A stretch of DNA of 64,000 nucleotides from assembly GCA_965207885.1 (NCBI GenBank), contig OZ242311.1:2944001-3008000 (forward strand), given 5' to 3'. Positions 29,485 through 58,485 of this stretch are shown in pieces. The stretch is from Candidatus Latescibacterota bacterium. GTDB taxonomy: Bacteria > Latescibacterota > UBA2968. Both the position numbers and the translations under genes were made by a program. A model generated the notes under the pieces. It saw only the letters and a list, made by a program, of their open reading frames with translations. It had not been told where the DNA came from and made no database searches. The stretch's first letter is position 1. The number at the start of each line of letters is the position of its first letter.

Positions 29485-31641
29485 ATGAAAATACGTATTC
29501 TTTTTGCTTTGTTGTTCTGTATCTCTCTTTTGGGAAGTATTTCCGAGGCGTCTGATTGGACGCACTGGCGCGGTCCCATGCAAAATGGCGCTTCGCCGGA
29601 GACTGGGCTTATTTCTACCTGGTCTCTGGAGGGCGAAAATCTGATCTGGCGCCGTGATTTTATCGGCAGATCTACACCGATTATTGTAAATGGTCGGGTC
29701 TATGTTATCGGGCGAACCGGCAAAGACATAACCGAGCAGGAGCACATCGCGTGTTTTGATGCGGAAACAGGTGATCTCATTTGGGAAAAGAAATTCAATG
29801 TCTGGCACTCAACCATAACCTTCAATCGTCTGGGATGGGCAAGCCTGGGGGCCGATGGCGAGACCGGTAATATTTACGCCCATCTCGTCAGTGGATTATT
29901 GATCTGTTTTGATACCGATGGCTATGTCCAGTGGCAGCGGTCTCTAACCGAAGAATTTAACCGATTCTCCGGTTATGGCGGACGATTGCACACGCCCGTT
30001 GTCGATGGCGATCTGGTTATCATCAGCATGGGCAATCGCGGATGGGCTGGTGTACCTCCTTCTCATCGGTATGTTGCCTTTAATAAACATACGGGTGAAA
30101 CCGCGTGGATGGCTCGTCCAGGCGGCGGTGGGCAGGTTGATTTAACCGTTTACTCTACGCCTGTTGTCACGACAATTGACGGGCAGCGCGTGTTGGTTGC
30201 CGGCAATGGCAATGGCGGTATTTTTGCCTTCAAAGTCGCAACGGGCGAAAAAGTATGGGGTTTTTCATTCAGTAAGCGCGGCATCAATACCTCGCCTGTT
30301 GTGGCTGATAATCGCGTTTATGTCGCACATAGTGAAGAAAATGTCGATAATACCTCTCTTGGTCGCGTTGCGTGTTTGGATGCGCGTACGGGCAAAGAAA
30401 TCTGGCGACAAGACGGTATGACCGCGGGCTATGCTTCGCCAGCGGTTCACGCGGGACGCGTCTATGTGATCGACAATTCGGCCAATGTGCATTGTTTAGA
30501 CGCCAAAACGGGAAAGCAATATTGGGAGCAAAATATCGGCACTGTGGGCAAGGGATCGCCGACCTGGGCCGATGGAAAACTCTATGTTACTGAAGTCAAT
30601 GGCGGCTTCCAGATTCTCAAAACGAACAATATGAACGCTGAAGTGCTCGACAAAAAGAAAATTGCAATGCCCGAAGGTGGGCATGCCGAGATCTACGGAT
30701 CAGCCGCTGTTGCGTATCGCCGCATCTATTTTGCGACCGAAGCCGGGTTGTTTTGTCTGGGCGATAAAAACGCGCGATTTGAAGTCACGCCTTCTCCCCA
30801 TACAAAGCACGAAAGCGCGCCTTCGAGTGCTGAACCAGCATCTATTCTTTCTATTCCGGCTGAGGCGACCATACAACAAGGCGAGGTACTGCCTCTGCGG
30901 GCAGAGGCTTATGACGAGAAGGGCCGCTTGATCGGCAATGCCGACGTCGAGTGGTCGTTGAATGGCCTGGATGGAGAAATAAAGAATAATCAGTTTGTAC
31001 CATCCCGACCGGGACAGGGCGGGTGGATCACGGCCAAACTGGGGGAATTAACCCGACAAACCTGGGTGCGCGTGGTGCCCGATGTGCCCTGGACAGAGGA
31101 TTTTGAAAATGTCGAAGTCGGCACAAATCCATTGCACTGGGTGTGGGGGGGCAGGGGTTTTGTGGTGGAGGAAAAAGATGGCAACATGGTGCTGGCAAAA
31201 CCGCCAGCTGCACGCGGCTTAGACCGGTCAAATCTCTACGTGGCGCCATACAACTTCAGTGGCTATACGATTCAGGCCGATCTTATGGGTACGCAGAACA
31301 AGCGCCGACGTCCCGATATGGGGCTTGTAGCGCATCGCTATATCCTCGACCTTCAGGGCATTCACCAACGCCTTGAAGTGCGATCGTGGTCGTCGGATTT
31401 GCGCATGGCAAAACGCATTGATTTCCACTGGGACATGGGGGTGTGGTACACCATGAAAATGAGAGTTGATATCGAAGGCGGTAAAGCTATCGTTCGGGGC
31501 AAAGTCTGGAAAAAAGGCGATCCCGAACCCGATGCGTGGAGTATTGAAGTAGAGGATCCCCTGCCGATAGAAGAGGGCAGCCCCGCGCTTTACGGCTATT
31601 CACCCGCCACGATTTACTACGATAATGTGAAAGTGTGGTAA
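29485..31641 (+). CDS. Exported PQQ-like beta-propeller protein with C-terminal Ig-like and beta-sandwich domains
   Basis: Signal peptide, DWTHWRGP..NG, repeated DA.TG..IW Trp-docking motifs. Confidence 0.85.
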   Translation: MKIRILFALLFCISLLGSISEASDWTHWRGPMQNGASPETGLISTWSLEGENLIWRRDFIGRSTPIIVNGRVYVIGRTGKDITEQEHIACFDAETGDLIWEKKFNVWHSTITFNRLGWASLGADGETGNIYAHLVSGLLICFDTDGYVQWQRSLTEEFNRFSGYGGRLHTPVVDGDLVIISMGNRGWAGVPPSHRYVAFNKHTGETAWMARPGGGGQVDLTVYSTPVVTTIDGQRVLVAGNGNGGIFAFKVATGEKVWGFSFSKRGINTSPVVADNRVYVAHSEENVDNTSLGRVACLDARTGKEIWRQDGMTAGYASPAVHAGRVYVIDNSANVHCLDAKTGKQYWEQNIGTVGKGSPTWADGKLYVTEVNGGFQILKTNNMNAEVLDKKKIAMPEGGHAEIYGSAAVAYRRIYFATEAGLFCLGDKNARFEVTPSPHTKHESAPSSAEPASILSIPAEATIQQGEVLPLRAEAYDEKGRLIGNADVEWSLNGLDGEIKNNQFVPSRPGQGGWITAKLGELTRQTWVRVVPDVPWTEDFENVEVGTNPLHWVWGGRGFVVEEKDGNMVLAKPPAARGLDRSNLYVAPYNFSGYTIQADLMGTQNKRRRPDMGLVAHRYILDLQGIHQRLEVRSWSSDLRMAKRIDFHWDMGVWYTMKMRVDIEGGKAIVRGKVWKKGDPEPDAWSIEVEDPLPIEEGSPALYGYSPATIYYDNVKVW

Positions 31642-31673
31642 TCTTTATAACCCCTTACAGATAAAGGAATAAA

Positions 31674-33101
31674 ATGAAATTGAAACGACTTTTTAGCGGA
31701 TGTGCCATCGTTGGTTTAATCGTATCGACTGGTATTGCTGAAGAGGTTATGTGGGGATTTACTCCAGATCGCAACCTCGTGTCAGACGCAAAAAATTTGC
31801 CAATGAACTGGAATGTAGAAACGGGTGAAAATATCGCCTGGAAAGCAGATCTCGGTTCGCAGTCCTACGCCGGTCCCATCAGGGTTGGTGGAAAAATATT
31901 CATGGGTACAAATAACCAGATTGAGCGCAATCCCAAAGTCACGGGTGACAAGGGCGTGATCATGGCGTTTCAGGAATCCGATGGGAAATTTCTCTGGCAA
32001 GCGGCGCATCCCAAGCTGCCCGCGGGGCGCGTCAATGACTGGCCACAACAGGGCATTTGTTCCACGCCTTATATTCGCGGAGATCGGATGTATTATATCT
32101 CGAATCAATGTCGCGTGGTGTGTGCGGATACAGAGGGGTTTTTGGATGGGGAAAATGACGGTCCATATACCGGAGAAGAGGATACGAGCGACATCGGCGT
32201 GGATATTATCTGGGAATACGACATGATGGAAGAACTGGATGTGTTCCCCCACAATCTGGCGACCTGTTCGCCCGTGGGGGCGGGCAATCTCCTGTTTGTC
32301 ATCACTGCTAATGGTGTTGACGAGGGCCACATCGCCATCCCGTCGCCTCTGTCGCCCAGTTTTATTGCGGTCGATCTCAATACGGGGGAACTGGTATGGG
32401 AAAAAGCCTATCCGGGTGAAAGTATCTTGCACGGGCAGTGGTCCAATCCCGCTTATGGTGTTATCAATGGCAAGCCGCAGGTGATTTGCCCCGGAGGCGA
32501 TGGTTGGGTTTATTCGGTGGAACCCGAGACCGGGGACTTGATCTGGAAATTTGACTGCAATCCAAAAGACTCTGTGTGGGAGTTGGGTGGGCGCGGTACG
32601 CGCAATGCAATTATTTCCACTCCCGTTATTTACGATAACAAGGTTTTTATCGGCGTTGGGCAAGACCCGGAGCACGGCGAGGGCATTGGACACCTGTGGG
32701 CTATTGATGCAACGGGTAAAGGCGATGTGACGGGAAGCCATGCGGTGTGGCACTTTGGCAATGAAAATTACAACCGGACTATTTCTTCGGTGGGCATCAG
32801 CGATGGCCTGCTCTATGCGGCAGACCTGAGTGGTTTTGTCTATTGTCTCGATCTGAAAACCGGCACACAGCACTGGAAATACGATACATTTGCTGCGATA
32901 TGGGGATCGCCTTTTGTCGCGGATGGAAAGGTGTACATTGGGGATGAAGACGGCGATGTGGCGATTTTGAAAGCCGGAACAGAATTTGAACTGATCAACG
33001 AAATCAATATGGGTAGCGCCGTATATACCACGCCTATTGCAAAAGATGGCATGCTCTACATTGGCACGCGCAATACGCTGTATGCGATTAAAGGCGAGTA
33101 G
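31674..33101 (+). CDS. Exported PQQ-like beta-propeller protein
   Basis: Signal peptide, W..ETGENIAW, multiple TG.L.W blades, acidic insertions. Confidence 0.85.
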   Translation: MKLKRLFSGCAIVGLIVSTGIAEEVMWGFTPDRNLVSDAKNLPMNWNVETGENIAWKADLGSQSYAGPIRVGGKIFMGTNNQIERNPKVTGDKGVIMAFQESDGKFLWQAAHPKLPAGRVNDWPQQGICSTPYIRGDRMYYISNQCRVVCADTEGFLDGENDGPYTGEEDTSDIGVDIIWEYDMMEELDVFPHNLATCSPVGAGNLLFVITANGVDEGHIAIPSPLSPSFIAVDLNTGELVWEKAYPGESILHGQWSNPAYGVINGKPQVICPGGDGWVYSVEPETGDLIWKFDCNPKDSVWELGGRGTRNAIISTPVIYDNKVFIGVGQDPEHGEGIGHLWAIDATGKGDVTGSHAVWHFGNENYNRTISSVGISDGLLYAADLSGFVYCLDLKTGTQHWKYDTFAAIWGSPFVADGKVYIGDEDGDVAILKAGTEFELINEINMGSAVYTTPIAKDGMLYIGTRNTLYAIKGE

Positions 33102-33114
33102 GAGAGGTCACAAT

Positions 33115-34203
33115 ATGGAAGTTCTGGCAACACCAGTGGCCGATAAGGTCAAAGAAGCGCGGGACAATCTCGATACCCAGGTGCGAGATATGGTCGCGTG
33201 GCATTTTAATCCCAGTACGGGATGTCCATTCTGGCTGGAATTTGCAGGGGAATTGGATTTTGATCCGCGGCGGGAGATCGGCGGGTACAGCGATTTGAAA
33301 TACCTCGGACATTTCCAGGATGAATGGCTGCGCGGCGGTCCCGTGCGGCGATGGATACCGAGGGGTAGTGAAGGACAGCGGACTTATGTATTTGAGACGG
33401 GTGGCTCAACTGGGGTTCCCAAATATCGGATCAGCCAAAATGATTTTCAGATCGACTACGAAATGTTTAGCGAGCACCTCTCAGAAGAAACATTTCCGAA
33501 GGGGGCGGACTGGTTAATGCTGGGACCAACAGGTCCACGGCGATTGCGTCTGGCTGTGGAATATCTCTGTCAGATTCGCGGTGGGATTTGCTTTCTCGTG
33601 GATCTTGATCCCCGATGGGTCAACAAGCTGATCAAGCGCGGGGCACTCCAGGAATTGGAACTCTACAAAGCCCATGTGATTGATCAGGCACTCACGATTC
33701 TGCGCGCCAATGACAATGTGAAATGCATGTTCACGACCCCCAAGCTTCTCGAAGAATTATGCGAAAAAATTTCTCTGCAAAAAGCCGGGATTAGCGGCAT
33801 TTTCTGCGGGGGAACAGAGATGAACGCACAATTCAATCGCTTTGCGAGAGAAGAGCTTATCCCGGGTATCGATTTTGTTCCTACCTACGGCAATACCCTG
33901 ATGGGGCTGGCTTATTCCAAGCCTCTGGAACCCGGAGATAACTACGCGATTACGTATTATCCTCCCGTGCCCCGCGCGTTTATCGAACTGGTGAATCCAG
34001 ATAATCCCGATGAAGTGGTCGATTACGACGAAGTCGGGCGCGTGATGCTGACGACGCTTACAAAAGAATTTTTTATGCCCCGCTTTCTCGAACGCGATGA
34101 GGCCGAACGCGCCAAACCGATTGAAGCCTATCCCTGGGATGGCGTGAGAAATCTGGGTCTGCTCTCCGAGTTGCAGGAATCAGTCGTCGTCGGGGTGTAT
34201 TAG
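33115..34203 (+). CDS. GriC/EhpF-like adenylate-forming (ANL superfamily) enzyme
   Basis: WHF.P.TGCPFW, VFETGGSTGVPK P-loop, FCGGT, PTYGNT, FMPRFLERD. Confidence 0.75.
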   Translation: MEVLATPVADKVKEARDNLDTQVRDMVAWHFNPSTGCPFWLEFAGELDFDPRREIGGYSDLKYLGHFQDEWLRGGPVRRWIPRGSEGQRTYVFETGGSTGVPKYRISQNDFQIDYEMFSEHLSEETFPKGADWLMLGPTGPRRLRLAVEYLCQIRGGICFLVDLDPRWVNKLIKRGALQELELYKAHVIDQALTILRANDNVKCMFTTPKLLEELCEKISLQKAGISGIFCGGTEMNAQFNRFAREELIPGIDFVPTYGNTLMGLAYSKPLEPGDNYAITYYPPVPRAFIELVNPDNPDEVVDYDEVGRVMLTTLTKEFFMPRFLERDEAERAKPIEAYPWDGVRNLGLLSELQESVVVGVY

Positions 34204-34299
34204 GTAGCGTTTAAAGAATGGGTAATTGACATAGAGAGAACTTGTTATGCAAGCTGCACACGTATGCAAGATCTGATATGCATACAAGGAGGTAACGAT

Positions 34300-36237
34300 A
34301 TGCGATCTATAATCGCACAAATTCTGGTTGTTGGTCTGCTATTTTACGCGGCCCCACTTCTGGCGCAGGAATGGGGGGATGTGTCTGAAGAGATTCTGGG
34401 CATGACCGGCATTCCCGAAGACTCTGAGGCCGATGCCGTTATTCTGTTCGATAAAGGTACTATCGCTATTACACTGCGATTCCAGCTTGTGATTCAGCGA
34501 CACACCCGAATTAAAATTCTCACCGAACGCGGCCTGAAATACGGCGATGTGTCCATCTATCTCGGCTCTGATGACGAGATAGATGAATTGCGGGCACAGA
34601 CTATTTTGCCCAATGGCAAAAAGGTTACGCTTTCAAAAAAAGACATTTTTACAAAAAAGCGCAGAAGTGGTTCTGAAAAGGTGTTCGCCATACCCGGTGT
34701 GGAGGTGGGGGCTGTTATTGAATACGCCTATGAAATTACCAGTAGACGACTGACATTTCTCGCCCCCTGGCAGTTCCAGCATGGCGTATTTACAAAGCTG
34801 AGTGAGTTGATCTTGATTATTCCAGAAGGTTTCGATTATCGGGCCTTTGCCAGCAATGCCTACGTTCCCGATCCACAGAGAGAGTCTTTTCAAATTGCCG
34901 ATCCTCAAATGGGTACCTCTTTTGTCGGCAGATTTGTATGGCGTGCAGAAAATTTACCAGCTCTTAAACGGGAACCTTATATTACGACGCTCAAAGATTA
35001 TTGGGCCACGTTATTTTTTCAGATTGTCTCTTATCGAAATCCAAAAGATACAATGGCCGATCCTGTCATATTCATTAAAACCTGGGACGACCTTGCGGAA
35101 ACCTTACAAAAGAGTTACAATCCACTCCTCAGAAGAAACAGGACCTTAGAAAGACGGACACTCGCTCTTGCACCCGAGACGCAGGATGACCGCACCCGGG
35201 CAGAGGCTATTTACAGCTATGTGAGAGACTCGATTGAAACATCTGCGTCGAGTGGAAGTCGCAAAAAACCCAACGATGTACTAAAAAGAAAAAAGGGCAG
35301 TTCGTCCGAGAAAAACATGTTGTTAATCGCGATGCTGAAAGCTGCTGGTTTCGAAGCCAGTCCGCTGCGTATTTCCACCCGCATCAATGGGCGTTTGCAA
35401 GAGAACTGGCCTCAATTGCAGCAATTCAACTACACGATTGCACACCTGTCCATAGACGATGACGTTTATTTTTTAGATACAAATGACAGTCAATGTCCAT
35501 TTGTACTGCTACCACCCAGATTCTTGTCTGGAAAAGGGTTTTTGATTGCGGAGGAAGAAGGCAAAATTGTCGAAATTCCCATACCGAAAGATGCGAGCAC
35601 AAGTAGAGCAAATACTCAGGCGAAGCTGACCGAAAACGGCGATCTCCTGTGCCAAACAACACTGCAATTTGAAGGGTATCGCGGGATTTCAGAACGAAAG
35701 GATCTGGACGAAGAGAAACCGGGGAAATACGTCAAAGATATTCTGGAAAACCGTTTTGGAGATGTGGTGATCGATACATTTCAGGTCGCCCAGGACAAAA
35801 ATGTCGATATGCCTTTGGAAGTTAAGATCGACTATCGGGTTCAAAATTACGCCCAGGTGGCTGGCGATATGGTCTATTGTCCATCGAGTTTGATCCATCG
35901 ACGTCAGTCCAATCCCTTCAAGAACGAAAAAAGGCTTTTTCCCGTCGAGTTCAATTACGGCTTTGCATCTGAAGAAATAGTAGATCTGACTCTACCGGAG
36001 GGGTTCGAGGTTGTCGAAATACCCGAAGTACAAAAGGTTACATCCCTCGGGGTCAGGTTTCAGTCTGATTGTCAGGCAGACAGCAATAGCGTGCGTGTCC
36101 AGCGGACGTTTTCTGTGAACCGCGTTTATTACACACCGGCGCAATATTCCCGGCTGCGAAACGCGTATGCAAAGATTGTGAGTGCCGATCAAGGACAGAT
36201 TGTCTTGCGTCGAAGGCCATTGGAAGCCGAAGAATAA
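34300..36237 (+). CDS. DUF3857/transglutaminase-like secreted protein (catalytic Cys apparently absent)
   Basis: DAVILFD, RIKILT..G, PGVEVGAVIEY, GSSSEKN in place of GxC, FNYTI. Confidence 0.82.
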   Translation: MRSIIAQILVVGLLFYAAPLLAQEWGDVSEEILGMTGIPEDSEADAVILFDKGTIAITLRFQLVIQRHTRIKILTERGLKYGDVSIYLGSDDEIDELRAQTILPNGKKVTLSKKDIFTKKRRSGSEKVFAIPGVEVGAVIEYAYEITSRRLTFLAPWQFQHGVFTKLSELILIIPEGFDYRAFASNAYVPDPQRESFQIADPQMGTSFVGRFVWRAENLPALKREPYITTLKDYWATLFFQIVSYRNPKDTMADPVIFIKTWDDLAETLQKSYNPLLRRNRTLERRTLALAPETQDDRTRAEAIYSYVRDSIETSASSGSRKKPNDVLKRKKGSSSEKNMLLIAMLKAAGFEASPLRISTRINGRLQENWPQLQQFNYTIAHLSIDDDVYFLDTNDSQCPFVLLPPRFLSGKGFLIAEEEGKIVEIPIPKDASTSRANTQAKLTENGDLLCQTTLQFEGYRGISERKDLDEEKPGKYVKDILENRFGDVVIDTFQVAQDKNVDMPLEVKIDYRVQNYAQVAGDMVYCPSSLIHRRQSNPFKNEKRLFPVEFNYGFASEEIVDLTLPEGFEVVEIPEVQKVTSLGVRFQSDCQADSNSVRVQRTFSVNRVYYTPAQYSRLRNAYAKIVSADQGQIVLRRRPLEAEE

Positions 36238-36252
36238 GATGAGGGTGGAGAG

Positions 36253-38142
36253 ATGAGAACCATATCTTTCATAAGGTCGGCACTTGTGGTCTTGCTAATT
36301 GCAGCCCATGTGCAGGCAGATGCGGACTGCGTTGGGGAGGATGTTGATGCGGTTGTTGTGCTGGATGAGAACGAATTTGTCATACGAGGCAAAAACAAGG
36401 CGACATATCGCAAACATCGGATTGTCAAAATTAACACCGAAGCAGGACGGAAATACGGACAGGTGGTAATTGGCGAAAATAAATACGTCAAGTGTACCCA
36501 TATCTCTGGAAAAATTTTGGATGCAGAGGGCAATCTGATTCGCAAATTGGGCAAAGGCGATGTTCGGAAAAACCCGTACTTTCCCGAGTACATCCTGTAT
36601 CAGGATACCAAATACCAGGCATTTGAACTGAAGGCCAGCACGTTTCCATATACAGTGGAATATACCTATGAACAGGAATACGAAAGCCTGTTCTTCTGGC
36701 CTTCGTGGTCTCCACAGGCGGATGTTCCCGTTCTGCAGTCAACCTATACTGTTGTGGGGCATGACAAAATTGATTATCGAACCCATGCCGTTGGGTTGAT
36801 AGAACCACCTGTAATGGAAAAGGCGTCTAAACGCAAGTGGCAGTTGACACATATTAAACCCAGAGCCAGCGAGCGGTCTATGCCTCCTGAAGACAGAATT
36901 CAGATGAGGCTCTTTTTTGCGCCTGTTGCCTTCAAAATTGGGAAGTCTCCAGGATCGTTCGCCTCATGGGATGCTGTGGCAAAATGGTACGGGATGCTGG
37001 CTGATGGTCGGTATGACCTGCCACAGGCTGCCGTAGAGAAAGTGCGGACATTGGTATCTGAAGCGAGCAGTGACCGGCAGAAAGTGGAGATTCTCTATCG
37101 CTATCTCCAGGATCACACGCGATATGTGGCTATTGAACTGGGCATTGGGGCGTGGCAACCGTATTCGGCAGAATGGGTTTTTAAGAATAAGTATGGCGAC
37201 TGCAAGGATCTATCTACATTCATGGTTGCGATGCTCAAAGCCTGTGGTATCTCAGCGTATCCAACCTTGATTGGCACGCGCGACCGCGGCATGTTGATTC
37301 GGGAATTTCCTTCCAATCAGTTCAATCACTGTATCACATTTGTCCCCTTGCAACGCGATACGCTCTGGTTGGAATGCACAGCCGACCTTATAGCTGCGGG
37401 GGAGTTGCCATCCGCAGATGAGGGATGCGATGTGCTCGTGGTTAAGGAGAACGCCGGAGAAATCGTTCGGACGCCGCAGAGTAAGAGTGGGGATAACTGC
37501 CAGATTAGCACTATAAAAGGCCATCTCACAGCATCAGGTAAACTTACTTTTTCGGGGCAGCTATCGGGCACAGGTAATATTGCAACGCGATTGAGACACA
37601 GTCTGCGGGATAACAAGGGAGAAGACCGCAAGCGTTATTTAGGCGGAAGATTGGGCAGGTATTTACCCGTGTTGGATCTGGCTACTTATGAGATTGATCA
37701 TCTGCTCCAGAACTTTGACCAACCACTTGAGGTACGCGTTAGCGGTACGTCCGGAAAATTTGGTGCTCGAAGCGCGAAGAGACTATTTGTGAATCCCAAC
37801 ATAGTGAACCGCGCCAGGCCGGGAAGTGTGCCGAGAGCGAAAAAACGGCAATTCTCTGTGTACCATTCCTATCCATATACGTACATTGATTCCCTATCTA
37901 TTGATATACCAAAAGGTTATGTGCTGGAAACTGCGCCTGAGCCAGTGGAAATTACAACGCCATTCGGCTTTTTCAAAACCACCAGTCATTTTTCGGGTGG
38001 CGCATTGCGCTATACCCGAATATTCAGGCTGGATGAAAAACAAATACCGCGGTCAGATTATGAGACCTATGTGTCTTTTATGAAGAATATTGTGAAAAAC
38101 GATCAAATCCCTTATGTTTTTGTGGCTGAGGCAAGTAGATGA
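36253..38142 (+). CDS. DUF3857/transglutaminase-like secreted protein
   Basis: YVAIELGIGAWQP, YGDCKD, FNHCI, WLECT. Confidence 0.85.
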   Translation: MRTISFIRSALVVLLIAAHVQADADCVGEDVDAVVVLDENEFVIRGKNKATYRKHRIVKINTEAGRKYGQVVIGENKYVKCTHISGKILDAEGNLIRKLGKGDVRKNPYFPEYILYQDTKYQAFELKASTFPYTVEYTYEQEYESLFFWPSWSPQADVPVLQSTYTVVGHDKIDYRTHAVGLIEPPVMEKASKRKWQLTHIKPRASERSMPPEDRIQMRLFFAPVAFKIGKSPGSFASWDAVAKWYGMLADGRYDLPQAAVEKVRTLVSEASSDRQKVEILYRYLQDHTRYVAIELGIGAWQPYSAEWVFKNKYGDCKDLSTFMVAMLKACGISAYPTLIGTRDRGMLIREFPSNQFNHCITFVPLQRDTLWLECTADLIAAGELPSADEGCDVLVVKENAGEIVRTPQSKSGDNCQISTIKGHLTASGKLTFSGQLSGTGNIATRLRHSLRDNKGEDRKRYLGGRLGRYLPVLDLATYEIDHLLQNFDQPLEVRVSGTSGKFGARSAKRLFVNPNIVNRARPGSVPRAKKRQFSVYHSYPYTYIDSLSIDIPKGYVLETAPEPVEITTPFGFFKTTSHFSGGALRYTRIFRLDEKQIPRSDYETYVSFMKNIVKNDQIPYVFVAEASR

Positions 38143-39726: not shown

Positions 39727-39729
39727 GAG

Positions 39730-49280: not shown

Positions 49281-49295
49281 ACGGGATTGCTGTAT

Positions 49296-51099: not shown

Positions 51100-51108
51100 T
51101 TGAGCACT

Positions 51109-51525
51109 ATGCACAGTGAATTTCACACCACTCGCAGGGTAGAATTTTCCGATACGGACATGGCCGGGATTGTACACTTTTCCCGGTTTTTTGTCTTTAT
51201 GGAAGCGGCCGAGCACGCTTTCTTGCGCGCGTTGGGGACGAGTGTTTCAACAGAATGGGATGGAAATAAAATTGGATGGCCGAGGTTGGAGGCGACGTGT
51301 ACATATCTCAGTCCGGTCGTATTTGAAGATGTGCTGGATATTCATCTGAAGGTGATACGCAAGGGCACAAAATCGCTGACCTATCGGTTTGATTTTTTTC
51401 GCGGAGAGATGGCGATTGCCAGTGGAGAATTGAGTACGGTATGTTGTATATGCAATCCCGGTGAAAAAATCAGGTCCATACCGATTCCAGATTTTATTGC
51501 GGATCAGATACAGGTCTCGGAATAG
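51109..51525 (+). CDS. Hot-dog acyl-CoA thioesterase (4HBT/YbgC-like)
   Basis: RVEFSDTDMAGIVHF..F..FME. Confidence 0.88.
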   Translation: MHSEFHTTRRVEFSDTDMAGIVHFSRFFVFMEAAEHAFLRALGTSVSTEWDGNKIGWPRLEATCTYLSPVVFEDVLDIHLKVIRKGTKSLTYRFDFFRGEMAIASGELSTVCCICNPGEKIRSIPIPDFIADQIQVSE

Positions 51526-51544: not shown

Positions 51545-52198
51545 ATGGCACTAAAAGTTGAGCAGCTTTCTAAACACTTCGGCGATGTAAATGTTCTGCA
51601 GAATATATCCTTTGAAATGGCGGCGGGGCAATCGCTGAGTGTTATGGGACCTTCGGGGTCGGGGAAAAGCACCCTGTTGCATGTGCTGGGTACGCTGGAC
51701 CGACCATCTGAGGGTAGCCTCAAAATTGAGGGAGAGGACCCCTTTGCATTATCTGAAAACGAACTCGCGCGGTTTAGAAATCAGGGGATTGGATTTGTGT
51801 TTCAAGAGCACCATCTTTTGCCGCAATATTCGGTTCTGGAAAATGTTTTGATCCCGACGCTGGCATTTCGAAATGGCGATGCGCGAGACCGCGCCCGAGA
51901 GATTATTCATCGCGTGGGCTTGTCGCATCGCATTGATCACCGGCCCGCTGAATTATCCGGCGGCGAGCGACAGCGCACAGCTGTTGCGCGTGCCCTCATC
52001 AATTCTCCAGCATTGCTCTTGTGCGACGAACCAACAGGTAGCCTGGATGGGGCGCGAGCAGAGGAAATAGCCAATCTGCTGTTTGAATTGCACAAGCGAG
52101 AAAATAATATTCTGATCTGCGCGACGCACAGTTCGGTACTCGCTCATCGCTTTGAGCGGCGGTTTGATCTACAGGGGGGAACGTGCGTCGAAGTCTGA
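51545..52198 (+). CDS. ABC transporter ATPase (LolD/MacB type)
   Basis: GPSGSGKS, GFVFQ, LSGGERQR, CDEPTG. Confidence 0.93.
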   Translation: MALKVEQLSKHFGDVNVLQNISFEMAAGQSLSVMGPSGSGKSTLLHVLGTLDRPSEGSLKIEGEDPFALSENELARFRNQGIGFVFQEHHLLPQYSVLENVLIPTLAFRNGDARDRAREIIHRVGLSHRIDHRPAELSGGERQRTAVARALINSPALLLCDEPTGSLDGARAEEIANLLFELHKRENNILICATHSSVLAHRFERRFDLQGGTCVEV

Positions 52199-55100
52199 TC
52201 TATTTCTGGCGAATTAATCTGGCTGTTATGCTCGGCGTGGCAGTGGCGACAGCTGTTCTGACAGGTGCTTTGATCGTGGGTGATTCCGTGCGCGGCAGCT
52301 TGCGGGATTTGTCGCTGAGTCGTCTGGGCAAAATTGACCACGCTCTGGTATCCGAGCGATTTTTTCGCGCACATCTGGAGCGCGATCTGGAGCGTGAACT
52401 CGACACTCAGGATGTTGTATCGGCTATCAGTCTGAGTGGAACAGCTGTTCACGCAAGATCGAATACGCGGGCTTCTCGCGTTCAAATTCAGGGTATTGAC
52501 AATCGCTTTGCAAATCTGTTTGATCAAATACTGCCCGAGTTGACGATCGAGGGAATATTTCCATCGGTTGTTGTCAACGAATCCCTCCAAAAAGAACTCA
52601 ATGCACAGATTGGCGATGCCATTCTGTTGTCTTTTGAACAATCAGATGATATTCACCGCGAATCGCTATTTGGACGTGCTGATGGTGCAGTTCAAACAAT
52701 TCGACTGACGCTCGCAGGCGTGCTTCCCGATAGGGGAATGGGGCGCTTTGGTCTTTTCGCCCGCCAGACCGTTCCACTCAATGCATACCTGTCGCTGCCA
52801 GTTTTGCAAAAAGCGTTGGGGCAAAGAGGCCGCGTGAATACACTGCTGGTGTCGGGTGATTCTGATACAGACGTTCAGGAAGTACTTTCCCGCGTTGCAA
52901 CGCCCGATGATCTCGGCATTATCATCCGCCGAGAGACCGATTATTTCGCTATTGAGAGCACGCAGTTTATTCTCAAATCCCATATTGCGGAAACTATTCA
53001 ACAAGTATCTGCTGAATTAAACGCGCCCCATATGTCCATTCTCACCTATCTGGCGAATACCACGCAGGTGGGGGAGAGAGAATTGCCCTATTCTACAATT
53101 TCTGCGTTAGATGTTGGGAATTTGGGGACTTTTCAGCTTGTAGATGGATTACTACAACTCGGGGAAGACGATATTTTGCTGAATACCTGGGCGGCTGAGG
53201 ATTTGAACGCACAGGTTGGCGATGAAGTGAAAGTTGCCTATTACGAAGTCGCTCCTGGGGAAAAACTCCTGACCCGTTGGGCGATATTTCAGCTCAAGGG
53301 CATTGTTGCAATGGCGGGATTGGGCGCAGATGAAAAGTTGTCTCCCGATTATCCTGGCCTTGGTGATGCAAATAATATGGCAGATTGGGAAGCCCCCTTT
53401 CCCATAGATCTGAGTCGCGTTCGTCCCGAGGATGAAGATTATTGGGATACCTATCGCGATGCGCCAAAAGCCTTTGTATCCGCCGCGACTGGGCAGCGAT
53501 TGTGGCAAAGTCGATTTGGCGTATTAACCGCCATACGCATTGGGGCTATTGCGGGAGAAGATATCGAAACAACGGCGAAACGATTTGAGGATCGCTTGCT
53601 GAAAAACATCGCGCCCGAATCGGCTGGTCTGATATTTCAGCCCGTCAAACAGCAGGGCCTGGCCGCTTCTGCAGGGGCAACGGACTTTAGCGGGCTGTTT
53701 ATTGCATTCAGCCAATTTTTGATTATCTCCGCGGCTCTTCTGGTCGGATTATTATTTCGCCTGAGTGTGGAGCAGCGGGGCAGAGAAGTCGGGATGCGGA
53801 TGGTATCGGGATATTCGGGAAAAAAAATTCGCCGACTCTTTAGTTGCGAGAGCCTTGTGCTGGCCGGTGTGGGCGGTATCACAGGGCTAATAGGCGGTGT
53901 TTTCTATGCCTATCTGATTATAGTGGGATTGCGCACTTATTGGGTTGGCGCGGTTGGTACGTCTGATCTCGCGCTCCACATCCACGCATCGAGTTTGTTG
54001 CTGGGCTATGCTATTTCACTGATCGTGATCCTGCTGGCAATCTGGCTCACGCTGCGCCGTTTGGGCAATATTTCTGTTCGCGCATTATTATCGGGTGTTA
54101 CGGAAGTGGTGCGCGCAAAGTCGCGCACCAAATGGTATGCCCTGGTCAGCCTTATCCTCGCCGCGCTCAGTCTGGGGGGCGCTGTGGCGGTGGATCCATC
54201 AGCGGGTACGGGTTTGTTTTTCGTTAGTGGTGCGCTGTGGATGGTTTCGGGATTGTGCTTTCTCTCGCTCTGGTTCAGGCGCGGGCATCGCTCTGTGAGA
54301 GAAGGTATTATTGGGATGGGGGTGCAAAATAGCAAGCGGCAGCCCGCGCGAAGTTTGCTGTGTGCCTCACTCATCGGTTGTGCGTGTTTTGTCATTGTTG
54401 CAGTAGGCGCGAACAGGCGAACTGATCTGACTCAAAATATCGCGCAGGACAAAGCCTCTGGCACGGGAGGCTTTGCTCTCATCGCCGAAGTTGATGTGCC
54501 GATTTATCGGGATTTCAATTCAAAAGAAGGACAATTTGAACTCGGGTTTTCGCAAACAGATGCAGAACTTTTGAATCAGGCGCAGTTCATCCCGCTGCGC
54601 GTTTTGCCGGGTGAAGATGCGAGTTGCCTCAATCTTTACAAGCCCGACAGCCCGCGCGTTCTGGGTGTTCCCGAAGCTTTGCGTCAGCGAGGTGGTTTTA
54701 CGTTTCAGCAAACGAGTACCGAAGTGGAAAATCCCTGGACTCTATTATCCGAGGATTTGGGTGCAGATGTGATCCCGGCAATTGGGGATTACAATTCGGC
54801 TATGTGGATCTTGCACAAGCAATTAGGCGATGATATTGTGTTGCAGAATGAGATGGGGGGAACAGTCAAGTTGAGACTGGTGGGCTTGTTAAAGACGAGT
54901 ATTTTTCAAAGTGAATTGCTGATTTCCGAAGACAATTTTTTGCGGCACTTTCCCGACCAGAGTGGGTATGGTGCTTTTCTCGTTGAAACACAACAACCCG
55001 TTCAGCTTACTGCGCTTGTGGAAAGCCGATTAAAAGATATCGGGTTAGACGCCGTATCTACAACACAAAAACTCGCGCATTTTCAGGAGGTCGAAAACAC

Positions 55101-55482
55101 GTATCTCTCCACCTTTCAAACACTGGGGGGATTGGGCCTGCTGTTGGGCACGCTCGGGTTGGGAATCGTTCTATTGAGAAATGTTATTGAAAGACGCGGT
55201 GAATTGGCGGTTCTGCGAGCCTTTGGCTTTCGCCGCGCTGTGCTGTCGCGCATGTTGCTCGCGGAGAATGGGTTTTTAATGCTCGTGGGTCTGGCTATTG
55301 GCAGCGTCTCCGCGCTTATTGCAGTAGCGCCCCATGTCATGAGCTATGGTGCGTTAATTCCTTGGGGATCGCTGGCTCTCACGCTTGTCATCATATACGG
55401 CGCGGGCCTCATCGCAAGCGCGATAGCTGTTTTCTTCGCCCTGCGAGCACCTTTATTGCCCGCGTTGAAACAGGAGATGTGA
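52183..55482 (+). CDS. Large FtsX/MacB-type ABC permease with two periplasmic domains
   Basis: TGALIVGDS, EQR.RE.G, ERRGELAVLRAFGF; GTG start overlaps the ATPase. Confidence 0.87.
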   Translation: MRRSLIYFWRINLAVMLGVAVATAVLTGALIVGDSVRGSLRDLSLSRLGKIDHALVSERFFRAHLERDLERELDTQDVVSAISLSGTAVHARSNTRASRVQIQGIDNRFANLFDQILPELTIEGIFPSVVVNESLQKELNAQIGDAILLSFEQSDDIHRESLFGRADGAVQTIRLTLAGVLPDRGMGRFGLFARQTVPLNAYLSLPVLQKALGQRGRVNTLLVSGDSDTDVQEVLSRVATPDDLGIIIRRETDYFAIESTQFILKSHIAETIQQVSAELNAPHMSILTYLANTTQVGERELPYSTISALDVGNLGTFQLVDGLLQLGEDDILLNTWAAEDLNAQVGDEVKVAYYEVAPGEKLLTRWAIFQLKGIVAMAGLGADEKLSPDYPGLGDANNMADWEAPFPIDLSRVRPEDEDYWDTYRDAPKAFVSAATGQRLWQSRFGVLTAIRIGAIAGEDIETTAKRFEDRLLKNIAPESAGLIFQPVKQQGLAASAGATDFSGLFIAFSQFLIISAALLVGLLFRLSVEQRGREVGMRMVSGYSGKKIRRLFSCESLVLAGVGGITGLIGGVFYAYLIIVGLRTYWVGAVGTSDLALHIHASSLLLGYAISLIVILLAIWLTLRRLGNISVRALLSGVTEVVRAKSRTKWYALVSLILAALSLGGAVAVDPSAGTGLFFVSGALWMVSGLCFLSLWFRRGHRSVREGIIGMGVQNSKRQPARSLLCASLIGCACFVIVAVGANRRTDLTQNIAQDKASGTGGFALIAEVDVPIYRDFNSKEGQFELGFSQTDAELLNQAQFIPLRVLPGEDASCLNLYKPDSPRVLGVPEALRQRGGFTFQQTSTEVENPWTLLSEDLGADVIPAIGDYNSAMWILHKQLGDDIVLQNEMGGTVKLRLVGLLKTSIFQSELLISEDNFLRHFPDQSGYGAFLVETQQPVQLTALVESRLKDIGLDAVSTTQKLAHFQEVENTYLSTFQTLGGLGLLLGTLGLGIVLLRNVIERRGELAVLRAFGFRRAVLSRMLLAENGFLMLVGLAIGSVSALIAVAPHVMSYGALIPWGSLALTLVIIYGAGLIASAIAVFFALRAPLLPALKQEM

Positions 55483-55488
55483 GGCGCG

Positions 55489-57024
55489 TTAATTTATTTT
55501 TTTAAGTGAAAGTTCATAGCACGCTGCTTCTCGATCATTTCGCACGAGGAGATAGGGCGCGGCAAGTGTGGGCGCATTCCAGGTATGGCTGCCCAGGGCG
55601 GGGAAGCGCGCGCGTTCATTGTGTTCAATTGGCGAGGCATCGACGAGCACGACATCGCCCGATTCGGTCTGGATGAGCAAGAGGTCATCTACGAGAATGA
55701 GTTGTCCGTGCCCGTAGCGCCCTCGCTTCCATTTGCGTTGCCCATCCGCCAGATCCAAACACACGAGGACGCCGTCGTCCAGTCCGTAAATATACCCGTC
55801 TTTATAGACCATATTGGCAAATTTGGCTTTGAGACGAGGGCTTTTCCATATCCGTTTGGCAGTAAATTCATCCCGACTGTTTTTCGCAATTTGAATCAAT
55901 TCACTGCCGATACCATAACCTGTTGATACAAAGATGCTGTCTCCGGGCAGTGGAATGGGTTGGGCAACGTGTTGCGTCATCCCACCAGTCCAGGGATATT
56001 CCCATAGCAACTTGCCGGAAATTGGATCGTGACCCGCGACTTGCCCCCTGTTAAAAATGAGTAATTGATCCATTCCCGCTATGGAGGCCAAACTGGGCGA
56101 GCTATGCCCTGCTCTTGTACGGCCACCTCCCCAGATAATAGTACCGGTTTCTCTGTCATAAGCCATCAGCGATTGCTCATTTCGTCCGCCCGGACTCACG
56201 ATCACTTTGTCGTCTAAAACGAGAGGCGAACCGCTCATGCCCCATTCTTTAACGCGCGCATTGGTTTCTTTCACGGTGTCGCGTGACCAGATTTCTCGAC
56301 CGGTTTCCAAATCGAGACAGGTGAGGATGCCGGTTGCGCCAAAAGAATAAACGCGGTTGTTCGATATGGTTGGCGTGGCTCGCGGACCAATTCCGGCAAT
56401 CGCGGTTTCATATCGCGCACGCGCGCTGTGACGCCATTTCTCTTTTCCGGTCAAGAGGTCGTAACAGGCAACGGTTTCGTCTTCGCCTTTTTGCTCTTGA
56501 GTCACGGCAGAGCGGCCAACAACGGCAAAGGCGGAATAGGCCTCACCGACGGGTACGCGCCAGAGTAATTTGGGGGGATTTTGAACCCAATCGGACTCCA
56601 GTTTTATTCCATTGAGTATGGCGTTGCGGTGTGGACCCAAAAATTGAGGATAGTCTGTATCGGGACCATCTGAAGACTGTCCCGACACGGATATCGCTGT
56701 AACAGAAGACCAGCGCCACTCTATCTTGGGAGCCAGATCGCCCGTAAAACCGCGAATTTGAAATAATGAAACTGTCAGGATGATCAGGAGTATAAGAATA
56801 CTTAGACCCCGCAGGCGGATTTTTCGACTCGCTCGGGAAAAAGCAAAGAACCAGAGACAGAGCAAAATAGAGCCGATTGAGCAGACGAGTATGGTCGGCA
56901 TAACCTGCATCTGGCGGTTTGGCCTGTCGGGAATCCAGATTGCCGATAATACAATGATCATCAATGCGGCGATCGCAATAGCGGGCCACCATCGAATGGG
57001 TTTGGGATAAAGAGGAGCAGGCAT
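55489..57024 (-). CDS. Membrane-anchored PQQ-like beta-propeller protein
   Basis: Three N-terminal TM helices, DYPQFLGP.RN, GPRATP, TWNAP. Confidence 0.85.
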   Translation of the reverse strand: MPAPLYPKPIRWWPAIAIAALMIIVLSAIWIPDRPNRQMQVMPTILVCSIGSILLCLWFFAFSRASRKIRLRGLSILILLIILTVSLFQIRGFTGDLAPKIEWRWSSVTAISVSGQSSDGPDTDYPQFLGPHRNAILNGIKLESDWVQNPPKLLWRVPVGEAYSAFAVVGRSAVTQEQKGEDETVACYDLLTGKEKWRHSARARYETAIAGIGPRATPTISNNRVYSFGATGILTCLDLETGREIWSRDTVKETNARVKEWGMSGSPLVLDDKVIVSPGGRNEQSLMAYDRETGTIIWGGGRTRAGHSSPSLASIAGMDQLLIFNRGQVAGHDPISGKLLWEYPWTGGMTQHVAQPIPLPGDSIFVSTGYGIGSELIQIAKNSRDEFTAKRIWKSPRLKAKFANMVYKDGYIYGLDDGVLVCLDLADGQRKWKRGRYGHGQLILVDDLLLIQTESGDVVLVDASPIEHNERARFPALGSHTWNAPTLAAPYLLVRNDREAACYELSLKKIN

Positions 57025-57097
57025 AAAATTCCTTTTTTTAGTTGTTAGATGTTAGTCCGCCAAATCTCTATCTCCAACGTAAATAAAAAAGAAAGGT

Positions 57098-57126
57098 TTG
57101 ACAACCATTCATTAAACAGATATTTT
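57098..57126 (+). promoter_or_regulatory. Sigma70-type promoter candidate
   Basis: TTGACA-N17-TATTTT upstream of an AGGAG RBS and ATG 57172. Confidence 0.55.
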
Positions 57127-57171
57127 GGATCTCTAAATTGCAAAATATCACATCACAGAAAGGAGTTTGCG

Positions 57172-58485
57172 ATGAAGAAATGGATTTTGATTTTGATGGG
57201 TTTTTGTCTCATTCCGATTTTGGTTCAGGCAAAACACCATGCGGCGAAGGAAACACAGAATTGGCCCCACCTGCGGGGACCGAATGTAAATGGACTGGTG
57301 GATACGGGCAATCCTCCCGTGGAATGGAGCGAAGATACCAATATCCGATGGAAAGTAAAAATTCCGGGTACGGGTCACGCCACGCCCATTATATGGGGCG
57401 ATAAAATTTTTGTCCAGACTGCGGTTAAGACCGACAAAACCGTAGAAGTTGCCCAGACAGCCAGAAAGCCGTTGCCCACTCATATCTATCACTTTAAGCT
57501 GCTTGCACTGGATCGCAAAAGTGGCGATGTGGTGTGGGAAAAGACCGTGCGCGAGGCATTGCCCCACGAAGGCACCCATAAAACGGCTAATTATGCTGCC
57601 ACATCGGGTGTTACGGACGGCGAGCATCTGTACGCCTTTTTCGGTTCATGGGGACTTTACTGTTTTGACTTTGATGGCAATTTGAAATGGGATAAGGACC
57701 TGGGCGATATGAGAGTTGCAGGTTCTTTCGGAGAAGGTTCATCGCCGACGATTCACGGCAATACGCTGATTATCAATTGGGATCACCAGGGCAATTCGTT
57801 TATTGTCGCGCTGGATAAACGCACGGGTGAGGAAATCTGGCGCACGGCGCGACGGGAAAGAACGACGTGGACCACACCGATCGTTGTCGAACACAAGGGC
57901 ACGCAACAGATTATTGTGGGCGCGAGTGGAAAGACCCGAAGTTACGATCTCAAAACCGGCGATGTCTTGTGGGAATGCGCGGGACTGGGGTCAAATGTCA
58001 TTCCCACCGCTGTCTATGCCGATGGCATCGTCTATGTTACAAGCGGTCATAGAGACCCGGCCATGCAGGCGATTTCACTCGACAAAGCCAAAGGCGATAT
58101 TACGGGTACAGATGCCATTCTGTGGACTGTTACTGGCAACTACACCCCTTATGTTTCCTCGCCTCTTCTTTCCGGAAACAATATCTATAGCATGAGAAAA
58201 ACTTCTAACATTTTGTTCTGTTTCAATGCCAAAACAGGCGAAATGGTTTTCGGTCCCGAGCGACTCCAGGGCCTGAATCGCATATATGCCCCGCTGGTTG
58301 GCACAAGCGACCGCATTTACCTCGCCGGGCTGGCCGGCATGACATTTGTGATCAAGAACGGCAGCGAATTTGAAGTGCTCGCAAAAAATAAACTCGACGA
58401 GGGCACTGGCGCATCTCCCATTATCGCGGGCGACGAGTTGTATTTGCGCGGCAGTGAACATCTTTATTGTATTGCTGCAAATTAA
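57172..58485 (+). CDS. Exported PQQ-like beta-propeller protein
   Basis: Signal peptide, NWPHLRGP..NG, W.E..NIRWK, FGEGSSP. Confidence 0.87.
   Translation: MKKWILILMGFCLIPILVQAKHHAAKETQNWPHLRGPNVNGLVDTGNPPVEWSEDTNIRWKVKIPGTGHATPIIWGDKIFVQTAVKTDKTVEVAQTARKPLPTHIYHFKLLALDRKSGDVVWEKTVREALPHEGTHKTANYAATSGVTDGEHLYAFFGSWGLYCFDFDGNLKWDKDLGDMRVAGSFGEGSSPTIHGNTLIINWDHQGNSFIVALDKRTGEEIWRTARRERTTWTTPIVVEHKGTQQIIVGASGKTRSYDLKTGDVLWECAGLGSNVIPTAVYADGIVYVTSGHRDPAMQAISLDKAKGDITGTDAILWTVTGNYTPYVSSPLLSGNNIYSMRKTSNILFCFNAKTGEMVFGPERLQGLNRIYAPLVGTSDRIYLAGLAGMTFVIKNGSEFEVLAKNKLDEGTGASPIIAGDELYLRGSEHLYCIAAN

Follow-up and report, generated by a model that had tools for sequence, protein, structure and literature searches.

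A putative pathway that would join aromatic-acid tailoring enzymes to exported propeller proteins lies in a 64,000-nucleotide stretch of DNA (the window, whose positions are used throughout) from a Candidatus Latescibacterota bacterium, at positions 2,944,001 to 3,008,000 of contig OZ242311.1 in assembly GCA_965207885.1; this genome is a single 6.23-Mb contig. Eighteen open reading frames (ORFs) on the plus strand, designated A to R here, occupy window positions 29485-55482 (26.0 kb), with gaps of 0-160 nt or overlaps between them. They are followed by a propeller gene on the minus strand (S, 55489-57024), a propeller ORF on the plus strand (T, 57049-58485) and a TAXI-type tripartite ATP-independent periplasmic (TRAP) transporter (U and V). 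These ORFs and strands are as claimed in an earlier note on this DNA, which had described a co-oriented 26-kb run with two further propellers. Family calls come from Pfam and NCBIfam searches of the window ORFs, which place PQQ_2-type propeller ORFs at 29485, 31674, 40852, 43296, 55489 (minus strand) and 57049. True starts were inferred from the points at which orthologues begin aligning, and the inferred starts tighten the packing of the run (C at 33115, I at 41946, where it overlaps the end of H, K at 44612, M at 48021 and Q at 51545). The families that the earlier note had listed are correct by Pfam, NCBIfam, Protein Data Bank (PDB) matches and motifs, whereas its gene list omitted two DUF3857/transglutaminase-like genes (34264-38142). 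As it also stated, no polyketide synthase (PKS), nonribosomal peptide synthetase (NRPS), phz or pqq family is present among the 46 ORFs of the window. No conserved small ORF or precursor peptide was seen in the two largest gaps (38143-38301 and 29314-29484), the only ones inspected, where the small ORFs are short and of low complexity only.

The pair formed by C and F provides the chemical core of the system. C (33115-34203, plus strand; the ORF opens at 33037 and the start was taken from orthologues) encodes an adenylating subunit of the EhpF/GriC type, as found in two-protein carboxylic acid reductases. Its product matches EhpF in the PDB (3l2k/3hgu) with an E value of 9e-44 in phmmer, over query residues 14-357 of 357, and the adenylase previously called GriC-like thus matches EhpF at full length; the Pfam AMP-binding match is weak. 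Across 76 sequences, 149 columns of C are at least 95% conserved. F (38302-39726, plus strand; Aldedh, 52.5 bits) encodes a reductase subunit with the aldehyde dehydrogenase (ALDH) fold in the EhpG/GriD position. Specifically, Cys288 of F is invariant within GRSCNAS in 48 sequences, and the Glu of the ELGGK motif is replaced by HGxGxSK. F is 25.5% identical, over 98% cover, to the ALDH encoded directly after a 366-aa AMP-binding gene in a Pantoea agglomerans phenazine cluster, which we take to be ehp, the D-alanylgriseoluteic acid cluster, where EhpF/EhpG reduce a phenazine carboxylate. In Streptomyces griseus, GriC/GriD reduce 3-amino-4-hydroxybenzoic acid (3,4-AHBA) in grixazone biosynthesis.

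C and F are adjacent once an insert of two genes, D and E, is set aside, and they then show the same gene order as both known pairs, adenylase followed by ALDH. In line with these pairs, F keeps the catalytic Cys and lacks the hydrolytic Glu. On the other hand, identity to EhpF/EhpG and GriC/GriD is only about 25-30%, the phenazine and 3,4-AHBA core genes are absent here, and the pair is joined to exported propellers, a glycosyltransferase of family 4 (GT4) and an FtsX ATP-binding cassette (ABC) transporter in at least six phyla. The best-supported assignment is that C and F would form an EhpF/EhpG-type two-protein carboxylic acid reductase, for which reduction of an aromatic acid is predicted. 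Directly after F lies G (39730-40845, plus strand; Fe-ADH 157 bits, ADH_Fe_C 128 bits), which encodes a cytoplasmic iron-containing alcohol dehydrogenase (ADH); no signal peptide was found in G.

The insert consists of D (34264-36237, plus strand), which by Pfam and a signal peptide is an exported DUF3857/transglutaminase-like protein, and E (36253-38142, plus strand), a second DUF3857/transglutaminase-like/DUF3858 protein by Pfam. Both sit between the adenylase C and its reductase partner F, and both are absent from this position in G021, which represents another genus, and in G029 and G025, which represent another family of the window's order. A remnant of D/E occurs in G011, and the insert was seen in two (L020 and L026) of the 80 related loci that were compared, of which the GC-rich loci L060 and L081 were searched by tblastn. 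D and E are a lineage-specific insert.

Two further observations concern C and its neighbours in other genomes. ORFs of 833-1258 aa had suggested C-F or A-B fusions; tblastn places C and F, and A and B, in different frames, and these ORFs are not fusions but open frames of GC-rich DNA. In Acidobacteriota the EhpF-like gene comes in two grades, 65-75% and 57-63% identical to C of the window. G141 carries both grades, and the family may have two subtypes with different contexts.

Five further enzymes would tailor an aromatic acid. L (46730-48001, plus strand) encodes an aryl/arylacetyl-coenzyme A (CoA) ligase of the PaaK family, which scores 258 and 232 bits with PaaK models, under their cut-offs, and is also under the cut-offs of FlxY (167 bits) and BagE/FevW (122 bits); its adenylation motifs are conserved. 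M (48021-49280, plus strand; the ORF opens at 47925) is a flavin-dependent halogenase by its Trp_halogenase/FAD matches. Its matches among PDB halogenases include 8zop (5.5e-66), PltA (8e-55), the Mpy16-type 5buk, CndH, CmlS and the Bmp2 type, with E values from 5.5e-66 to 2e-47. In eight sequences, GxGxxG (G44-G49), Lys105 and WFWxIP (W250-P255) are invariant, which fits the WxWxIP motif and catalytic Lys of halogenases. M thus keeps the GxGxxG, WxWxIP and Lys of the carrier-bound halogenases PltA, Mpy16, Bmp2, CndH and CmlS; unlike in their systems, no carrier protein occurs here, and a CoA ligase and a 4HBT thioesterase are found instead. The closest solved relatives of M halogenate pyrrolyl or aryl thioesters, which supports the (hetero)aromatic acid that had been proposed as the substrate class.

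I (41946-43295, plus strand; the ORF opens at 41838) encodes a HemN-like (class C) radical S-adenosylmethionine (SAM) enzyme with Radical_SAM and HemN_C matches, the latter at 23.8 bits against a cut-off of 24. The CxxxCxxC (C106/C110/C113) and GGGTP (G157-P161) motifs of I are invariant, and I falls below all equivalog cut-offs (ChuW 185 of 400 bits, HemN 183 of 325, HemW 170 of 205). P (51100-51525, plus strand; 4HBT, 42 bits) encodes a thioesterase of the 4HBT/YbgC type, for which TIGR00051 gives 58.6 bits, under its cut-off of 68.7, and in which Asp20 and His26 are invariant. N (49287-50594, plus strand; Glycos_transf_1, 104 bits) encodes a GT4 glycosyltransferase with 94 conserved columns in 22 sequences and a conserved N-terminal MYCGxC motif, an unusual N-terminus. 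The families and motifs of these enzymes support the chemistry that had been listed for them.

All six propellers of the cluster carry a signal peptide or a membrane anchor. B (31674-33101, plus strand, with a signal peptide) is an exported eight-bladed propeller that accompanies the reductase universally. In a comparison of 18 sequences whose titles name at least six phyla, identity to the B of the window is 56-88%, and there are about 150 invariant columns, including seven His and the conserved motifs GRVNDWPQQGxCS, FPHNLA, NGVDEGH, GGDGW and GQDPEHGEG. The model of B, with a predicted local distance difference test score (pLDDT) of 82 and a predicted template modelling score (pTM) of 0.86, superposes best on YxaL (Z 37.2, root-mean-square deviation 2.2, 335 aligned residues) and BamB (Z 33-35), with Foldseek TMt values of 0.73-0.80. 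Lesser matches are tetrathionate hydrolase (Z 31), pyrroloquinoline quinone (PQQ) dehydrogenases (Z about 29, TMt 0.50) and NirF (Z 23.4). B differs from BamB and YxaL in its length, which is greater by about 100 residues, in not being a lipoprotein and in its dense invariant polar face. No conserved lipobox Cys is present in the B orthologues, whose signal peptides are of type I, and the BamB equivalog model TIGR03300 gives the cluster propellers 37-181 bits (B 65) against 285. We mapped the invariant residues on the secondary structure of the model ourselves; nearly all belong to the D-A and B-C loops of blades 1-7 and so to a single face, the top face, which is invariant and rich in His, Asp and Glu. 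That face is where propeller enzymes bind ligands, and B is more than a mere scaffold. A language-model (Atlas) look-up with B returned only its own kind.

A (29485-31641, plus strand; PQQ_2 127 bits, signal peptide) is an exported propeller of 718 aa with C-terminal immunoglobulin-like and jelly-roll lectin-like domains. The model of its C-terminal 294 aa (pLDDT 90.9) finds β-sandwiches of lectins and carbohydrate-binding modules (CBMs) in Foldseek, namely the lectin domain of galactocerebrosidase and CBM66 (TMt 0.68), and this modelled lectin-like domain would suit a glycosylated ligand. A is syntenic with B and C in several phyla, and H (40852-41952, plus strand; 366 aa, exported; Beta-prop_ACSF4 206 bits, PQQ_2 147 bits, signal peptide) is likewise syntenic across phyla. 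The exported propeller J (43296-44567, plus strand; 423 aa, PQQ_2 115 bits) is a variable member, which is present in G025 and G011, lies elsewhere in G021 and is replaced by a distant paralogue in G029. S (55489-57024, minus strand; PQQ_2 105 bits) is a membrane-anchored propeller with three N-terminal hydrophobic segments, and its orthologue adjoins R in G021. T (57172-58485, plus strand; PQQ_2 77 bits; the ORF opens at 57049) is an exported propeller whose orthologue lies directly after R in G025, and in Acidobacteria T-like propellers precede A-B-G-H as a tandem array. In G025 the orthologue of T (L016:5912-7453), which follows the permease gene without another gene between, is interrupted by two in-frame stop codons and was left out of an alignment.

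With the quinoprotein dehydrogenase model TIGR03075, whose cut-off is 480 bits, no cluster propeller exceeds 89 bits and a search of the whole genome reaches at most 37.8 bits, and no CxxCH cytochrome c motif was found in 25 proteins. Because they lie under the quinoprotein cut-offs, with no PqqE, no PQQ-ADH and no CxxCH, the cluster propellers are not quinoprotein dehydrogenases.

Three further genes of the run encode membrane or envelope components. O (50608-51099, plus strand) is a small polytopic membrane protein with five or six hydrophobic segments, half-size and similar to the drug/metabolite transporter (DMT)/EamA type. No Pfam match was found for O; the DMT-like call rests on the hydrophobic segments and on language-model (Atlas) neighbours named EamA/DMT, at 0.97, in a look-up that returned only its own kind. 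O is syntenic in G021, G029 and G025. Q (51545-52198, plus strand; the ORF opens at 51461) encodes a LolD/MacB-type ABC ATPase (ABC_tran 121 bits; LolD model 242 bits, under the cut-off of 308), and R (52183-55482, plus strand) encodes a duplicated FtsX permease with two FtsX matches and MacB_PCD, whose periplasmic domains measure about 470 and 235 aa by hydropathy. With an FtsX permease bearing a large periplasmic domain and an ATPase of the LolD/MacB type, Q and R have the make-up of a predicted type VII (MacB/LolCDE/FtsEX) ABC system; neither a MacA-type adaptor nor LolA is encoded with them. N, Q and R are adjacent in Acidobacteria too. A complex prediction for R residues 33-504 with propeller T scored 0.00, which counts neither way on binding.

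The gene content and order of the system extend well beyond the genus of the window. Relatives of C were found in at least 589 species (confirmed stretches, in a collection with one genome per species) and six or more phyla, with 61-75% identity between phyla; C is present in 91 of 140 genomes of the phylum and in single copy in 37 of 41 relatives. The holders include Sulfidibacter corallicola M133 and Acidobacteria bacterium Mor1. Copies of C 96-97% identical to that of the window occur in public records of Candidatus Latescibacterota metagenome-assembled genomes, and sponge-metagenome-labelled runs of several studies hold near-identical DNA. Across the window's order (G021, G029 and G025) the order A-B-C-F-G-H-I-(J-K)-L-M-N-O-P-Q-R is kept, and partial order is seen in loci titled Poribacteria, Gemmatimonadota, Calditrichia, Acidobacteriota and Planctomycetota. 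A propeller gene lies within 5 kb of C in 43 of the 53 loci that extend at least 5 kb to both sides. On these comparisons of sequence, a chance gene arrangement is excluded, because the synteny recurs in other orders and phyla.

Three studies with four metatranscriptome libraries provide contigs, 90-99% identical to the window, that cover all 30 bins of positions 30000-49999 and bridge the A-B, C-D, F-G, H-I, I-J, K-L, L-M and M-N junctions. Some end loosely at 34202, 38143/38144 and 38301, which fits relatives without the D/E insert.

A stricter view of what belongs together comes from Acidobacteria, in which three loci share the genes among them: [Vut_1]-C-F-N-Q-R, T-like propellers with A-B-G-H, and I-M-P. 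Five Acidobacteria have a compact C-F-N locus, followed by Q-R in four of them; all five encode B orthologues, 55-58% identical, on other contigs, and four encode M orthologues. We tallied an even sample of 201 Acidobacteriota genomes of at least 90% completeness, two of them unpublished (G290 and G193), as raw counts without kinship correction. In this sample C is present in 55 genomes and B in 58; both occur in 55, B alone in three and C alone in none. N is present in 58 genomes, including all 55 C holders, and M in 45, all of them C holders. C and B even lie megabases apart on one contig in G229, G286, G306 and G333. Conversely, B is missing too from the four of 41 relatives without C, and nothing closely matching N or M was found in them. 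The co-occurrence of C, B, N and M, although the genes are split, is strong genomic evidence for a shared function of the cytoplasmic enzymes and, at a minimum, propeller B. Co-occurrence in other genomes, on which the earlier note had made its proposal depend, is near perfect.

Taken together, the protein families, catalytic motifs, synteny, genome-wide co-occurrence and RNA-library contig cover are the observations on which we base the following proposal, to which we give slightly less than an even chance: the cluster would encode a conserved pathway of four modules, whose tailored, reduced and glycosylated (hetero)aromatic product is handled in the periplasm. In this proposal, L would activate a (hetero)aromatic carboxylic acid as a thioester, M would halogenate the ring of the thioester, I would probably C-methylate or otherwise alkylate the ring, and P would free the acid from the thioester. 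C would then adenylate the acid, and F would take the acyl group on Cys288 and reduce it with NAD(P)H to the aldehyde, which G could carry on to the alcohol. N would glycosylate the product, O would move it across the inner membrane, and Q-R, working on the periplasmic side, would handle it there. The exported propellers would bind the product or work on it, with B involved in every case, A and H in most, and the J-, S- and T-type propellers variably, and importers that differ by lineage (TonB receptor, TAXI-TRAP, Vut_1) would take up the acid or the product. The order of these steps, the class of the substrate and the role of the propellers are what we infer from the gene set, as is the end use, which may be that of an antibiotic, a signal, a metal binder or a protein ligand.

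Several points weigh against this pathway. Substrate and product are given by inferred class only. No carrier protein or flavin reductase is encoded here, and in three Acidobacteria loci with the I-M-P trio no L was found nearby, which leaves the thioester step insecure; M is absent in 10 of the 55 Acidobacteriota C holders, so halogenation is not essential. On the side of transport, O as a candidate inner-membrane exporter or flippase is a guess, and type VII ABC transporters (MacB/LolCDE) carry no substrates across the inner membrane. Contigs from RNA libraries are no proof that the genes are transcribed, or transcribed as one unit, and such libraries can contain DNA. Finally, the very high conservation and the single copy are unusual for secondary metabolism and fit housekeeping better.

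The importers bear on two alternatives to this proposal. Downstream of the propellers, U and V (58498-61361, plus strand) encode the binding protein, at 58498-59448, and the fused permease of a TAXI-type TRAP transporter, above cut-offs (TIGR02122 267 bits, TIGR02123 557 bits), which is possibly an inner-membrane importer. A TAXI-TRAP transporter adjoins the system in the window and in G025 and lies upstream of A in L060 (61% identity). In 12 of the 80 loci, all of them with Acidobacteriota-like titles, a transporter gene of the Vut_1 (YhhQ) type precedes C on its strand at a distance of 44-431 nt; no Vut_1 is present in this genome. Third, K (44612-46726, plus strand; the ORF opens at 44513) encodes a TonB-dependent receptor of the siderophore type (TIGR01783 251 bits, cut-off 223.5), a variable member that was seen in 14 of the 80 loci and is absent from the cluster in G021 and G029. 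Three unrelated importer types in or beside the system across lineages support the import of an acid that had been suggested, although this pattern fits an imported acid and the recapture of an exported product equally well.

If the acid is what enters, the system could serve uptake and conversion, that is, salvage or detoxification of an environmental (hetero)aromatic or vitamin-like acid, with propellers A (through its lectin domain), B and H releasing or binding the acid in the periplasm, the importers taking it into the cell and the cytoplasmic enzymes carrying out its reduction and conjugation. The lineage-specific importers, above all Vut_1 upstream of C and the TAXI-TRAP transporters of the window, G025 and L060, speak for such a role, as does the minimal Acidobacteria locus, which reads importer-reductase-GT4-ABC. 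However, halogenases and GT4 enzymes are anabolic tailoring enzymes, a reduction from acid to alcohol that consumes ATP is expensive for a catabolic route, and no ring-cleavage or β-oxidation genes are present among the window's 46 ORFs. We regard a function of this kind as improbable.

If it is instead the product that enters, the cluster could make, export and recapture a secreted metal-binding or redox-cycling aromatic, re-imported like a siderophore by way of the TonB receptor and the TRAP or Vut_1 transporters, with the propellers as maturation or release enzymes. K passes the siderophore-receptor model, and exporter-like and importer-like genes share one operon. Yet K is missing from the cluster in the two genomes named above and from most Acidobacteria loci, and the 46 ORFs hold no NRPS, no NRPS-independent siderophore (NIS) synthetase and no siderophore-type binding protein, nor is there a ferric reductase. 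In line with this, the part of a preprint on related clusters that we consulted (10.64898/2026.08.03.742642) mentions TonB transporters without other metallophore marks. Recapture of a siderophore-like product is, in our view, quite unlikely.

Returning to the pathway that we favour, the role of the propellers admits one more alternative, close to the suggestion in the earlier note that a non-PQQ cofactor is delivered to periplasmic propellers. On this account the cell would export the product and load it, as a small redox cofactor or prosthetic ligand, into exported propellers, namely B and perhaps a large number of paralogues. We consider this unlikely, and we are similarly doubtful of its more specific form, in which a small, often halogenated and glycosylated, heteroaromatic is the ligand or prosthetic group of BamB-like propellers, with B as the universal client. 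A sharper version would make the precursor a scavenged vitamin-like acid, with 7-carboxy-7-deazaguanine-type or pyrrole-2-carboxylate-type acids as candidates, because the in-operon importer of Acidobacteria belongs to the Vut_1/YhhQ family; a studied member of this family imports 7-deazaguanine precursors. The presence of B, C and N together in 55 of 55 genomes, even where C and B are megabases apart, argues for a ligand of this kind, as do the roughly 150 invariant columns of B with their seven His, concentrated in top-face loops, and a conservation of the system that is of cofactor grade. The genome is moreover pqq-negative (PqqE 66 bits against 381, PQQ-ADH 37.8 against 480); PqqC also gave no match in the genome, although the control genomes are silent too, so that this result shows nothing alone.

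Propeller numbers point in the same direction in part. Among the Acidobacteriota, the 55 holders have a median of 56 PF13360 candidates (minimum 22), against a median of 8 (maximum 64) in 139 listed non-holders; seven more non-holders have none. At genome sizes of 3-5 Mb the medians are 51 and 8. These first-look candidates are a rough proxy and not copy numbers, which were preferred to scored matches because these saturate with only 13-18 candidates scored per genome. In the window's order, PF13360 matches number 12-38 in holders and 1-4 in four non-holders. The tracking of propeller expansion by the cluster, which the earlier note had proposed as a check, holds in Acidobacteriota, at about sevenfold, and in the window's order, but it is not general across Latescibacterota, nor does it extend to the 'empty quinoprotein' family TIGR04528. 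Members of TIGR04528 above cut-off occur in 12 genomes, eight of them without C. In Latescibacterota the median of PQQ_2 candidates is 41 in holders and 14 in non-holders, yet 17 of 49 C-negative genomes have at least 20 candidates and family f10 has 12-35 without C. This genome itself encodes no more than 11 propeller proteins. Six belong to the cluster; outside it, two carry a fused hydrolase domain, a phosphoesterase in one case and an esterase in the other, and three stand among sulfatase, beta-lactamase-family, oxidoreductase, TPR and DUF6785 genes. The enrichment is uncorrected for phylogeny and partly counts the system's own propellers. We conclude that the link between the system and propeller number is real, only partly explained, and inflated by these own propellers.

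The structural evidence also counts against a cofactor. The fold of B is nearer to YxaL and BamB than to PQQ dehydrogenases in both Z and TMt, and no CxxCH motif or other electron acceptor was found in the 25 proteins. We know of no cofactor pathway that uses a halogenase. As for cofactors derived from ribosomally synthesised and post-translationally modified peptides (RiPPs), neither a precursor peptide, in the two largest gaps checked, nor a SPASM maturase was found; unlike in the PQQ and mycofactocin systems, the radical SAM enzyme here is HemN-like and not of the SPASM type. Heme d1 and PQQ are cofactors made in the cytoplasm and used by periplasmic eight-bladed propellers, heme d1 by NirS, NirF and NirN and PQQ by quinoproteins. 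Were the cofactor account correct, the system would share with them cytoplasmic synthesis, export and a propeller client, and NirF is among the matches of B (Z 23.4); it differs in having no pqq or nir biosynthesis genes and no redox partner, and this structural match is far weaker than that to BamB. The suggested delivery of a non-PQQ cofactor to propellers thus keeps in its favour the tie of B to the reductase, the polar face, the enrichment and the pqq-negative genome, whereas the BamB-like fold and the lack of an acceptor stand against it.

The mix of gene types found here has a counterpart in recent work on sponge microbiomes. In the part of that preprint available to us, a 'Halo_AMP pseudoclass' of orphan clusters is defined by a flavin halogenase and an AMP-binding enzyme, with PQQ-like domains frequent alongside TonB transporters, glycosyltransferases, thioesterases and radical SAM enzymes (Loureiro et al., bioRxiv 10.64898/2026.08.03.742642). 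According to the same part, 9% of the Halo_AMP families are from Latescibacterota, 8% from Poribacteria and 16% from Acidobacteriota, and the best gene matches are BagE, Bmp2 and BrtI (10.64898/2026.08.03.742642). The likeness lies in the gene types and the phyla, and no family in the consulted part is confirmed as the present cluster. By contrast, that part treats the clusters as natural-product biosynthetic gene clusters (BGCs) without a product, and the propellers, the reductase pair and a distribution outside sponges are not analysed in it. A literature search combining 'PQQ-like', halogenase and 'gene cluster' returned this preprint only, and listings and abstract openings of the literature on EhpF, GriC and carboxylic acid reductases held nothing on this system.

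What is at stake is a single-copy system of at least 589 species in Latescibacterota, Poribacteria, Gemmatimonadota, Calditrichia, Acidobacteriota and Planctomycetota, which links exported propellers, one of the largest unexplained protein families of these phyla, with a halogenase and a rare two-protein carboxylate reductase. One outcome of finding the product would be a widespread halogenated metabolite of sponge symbionts and soil Acidobacteria. If the product were a propeller cofactor instead, it would explain the role of 'PQQ-like' propellers devoid of PQQ and the large PQQ_2 families in the absence of pqq genes, and the known propeller cofactor systems, PQQ and heme d1, would gain a third member.

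Several genes near the system recur in its relatives. A DUF6785/DUF6784 membrane protein is encoded about 1 kb upstream of the cluster (26532-28520, minus strand). A paralogue in this genome (G000:C1:297792-299777; L110:1893-3878) is found next to J's closest paralogue outside the cluster, with a PMT_2/TPR protein alongside, and a 30%-identical relative lies near A-B-C-F-G in G140 (L106); the protein may be a further component. A PhyH-type Fe/2-oxoglutarate dioxygenase (28552-29313, minus strand) stands divergent beside A in the window's genus, and a separate family of PhyH-type ORFs occurs near the system in nine Poribacteria-titled loci (e.g. L085:3106-3981). Further extras of Poribacteria-titled loci (L033, L070 and others) are a thiamine pyrophosphate (TPP)-dependent enzyme, a creatininase-family protein and an AAA_21/DUF4276 pair.

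The cluster is flanked by sulfatases, YHYH proteins, heparinase-like genes and insertion sequence (IS) elements. At 3087-11268 lie two sulfatases, two YHYH-domain proteins, one of them with PKD, and EF-hand proteins, interrupted by a transposase; a DDE transposase, the third in the window, is at 8572-9687. The other two are copies of the IS4/IS5 type with identical Pfam scores (1720-2292, minus strand, and 14491-15361, plus strand), and a DUF4096 ORF stands ahead of the latter; such an arrangement of two ORFs is typical of programmed frameshifting. The gene at 12703-14433 encodes a RecQ-type helicase that begins with a DUF488 domain at its N terminus, and the one at 18773-21820 a UvrD-type helicase, whose two helicase halves are separated by an inserted RNase T-like exonuclease domain. 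DUF4962 and Hepar_II_III_C are expected in a single heparinase-like protein; downstream of the TRAP transporter (61352-63620, minus strand) they fall on overlapping ORFs, which could be a frameshifted gene or a sequencing error.

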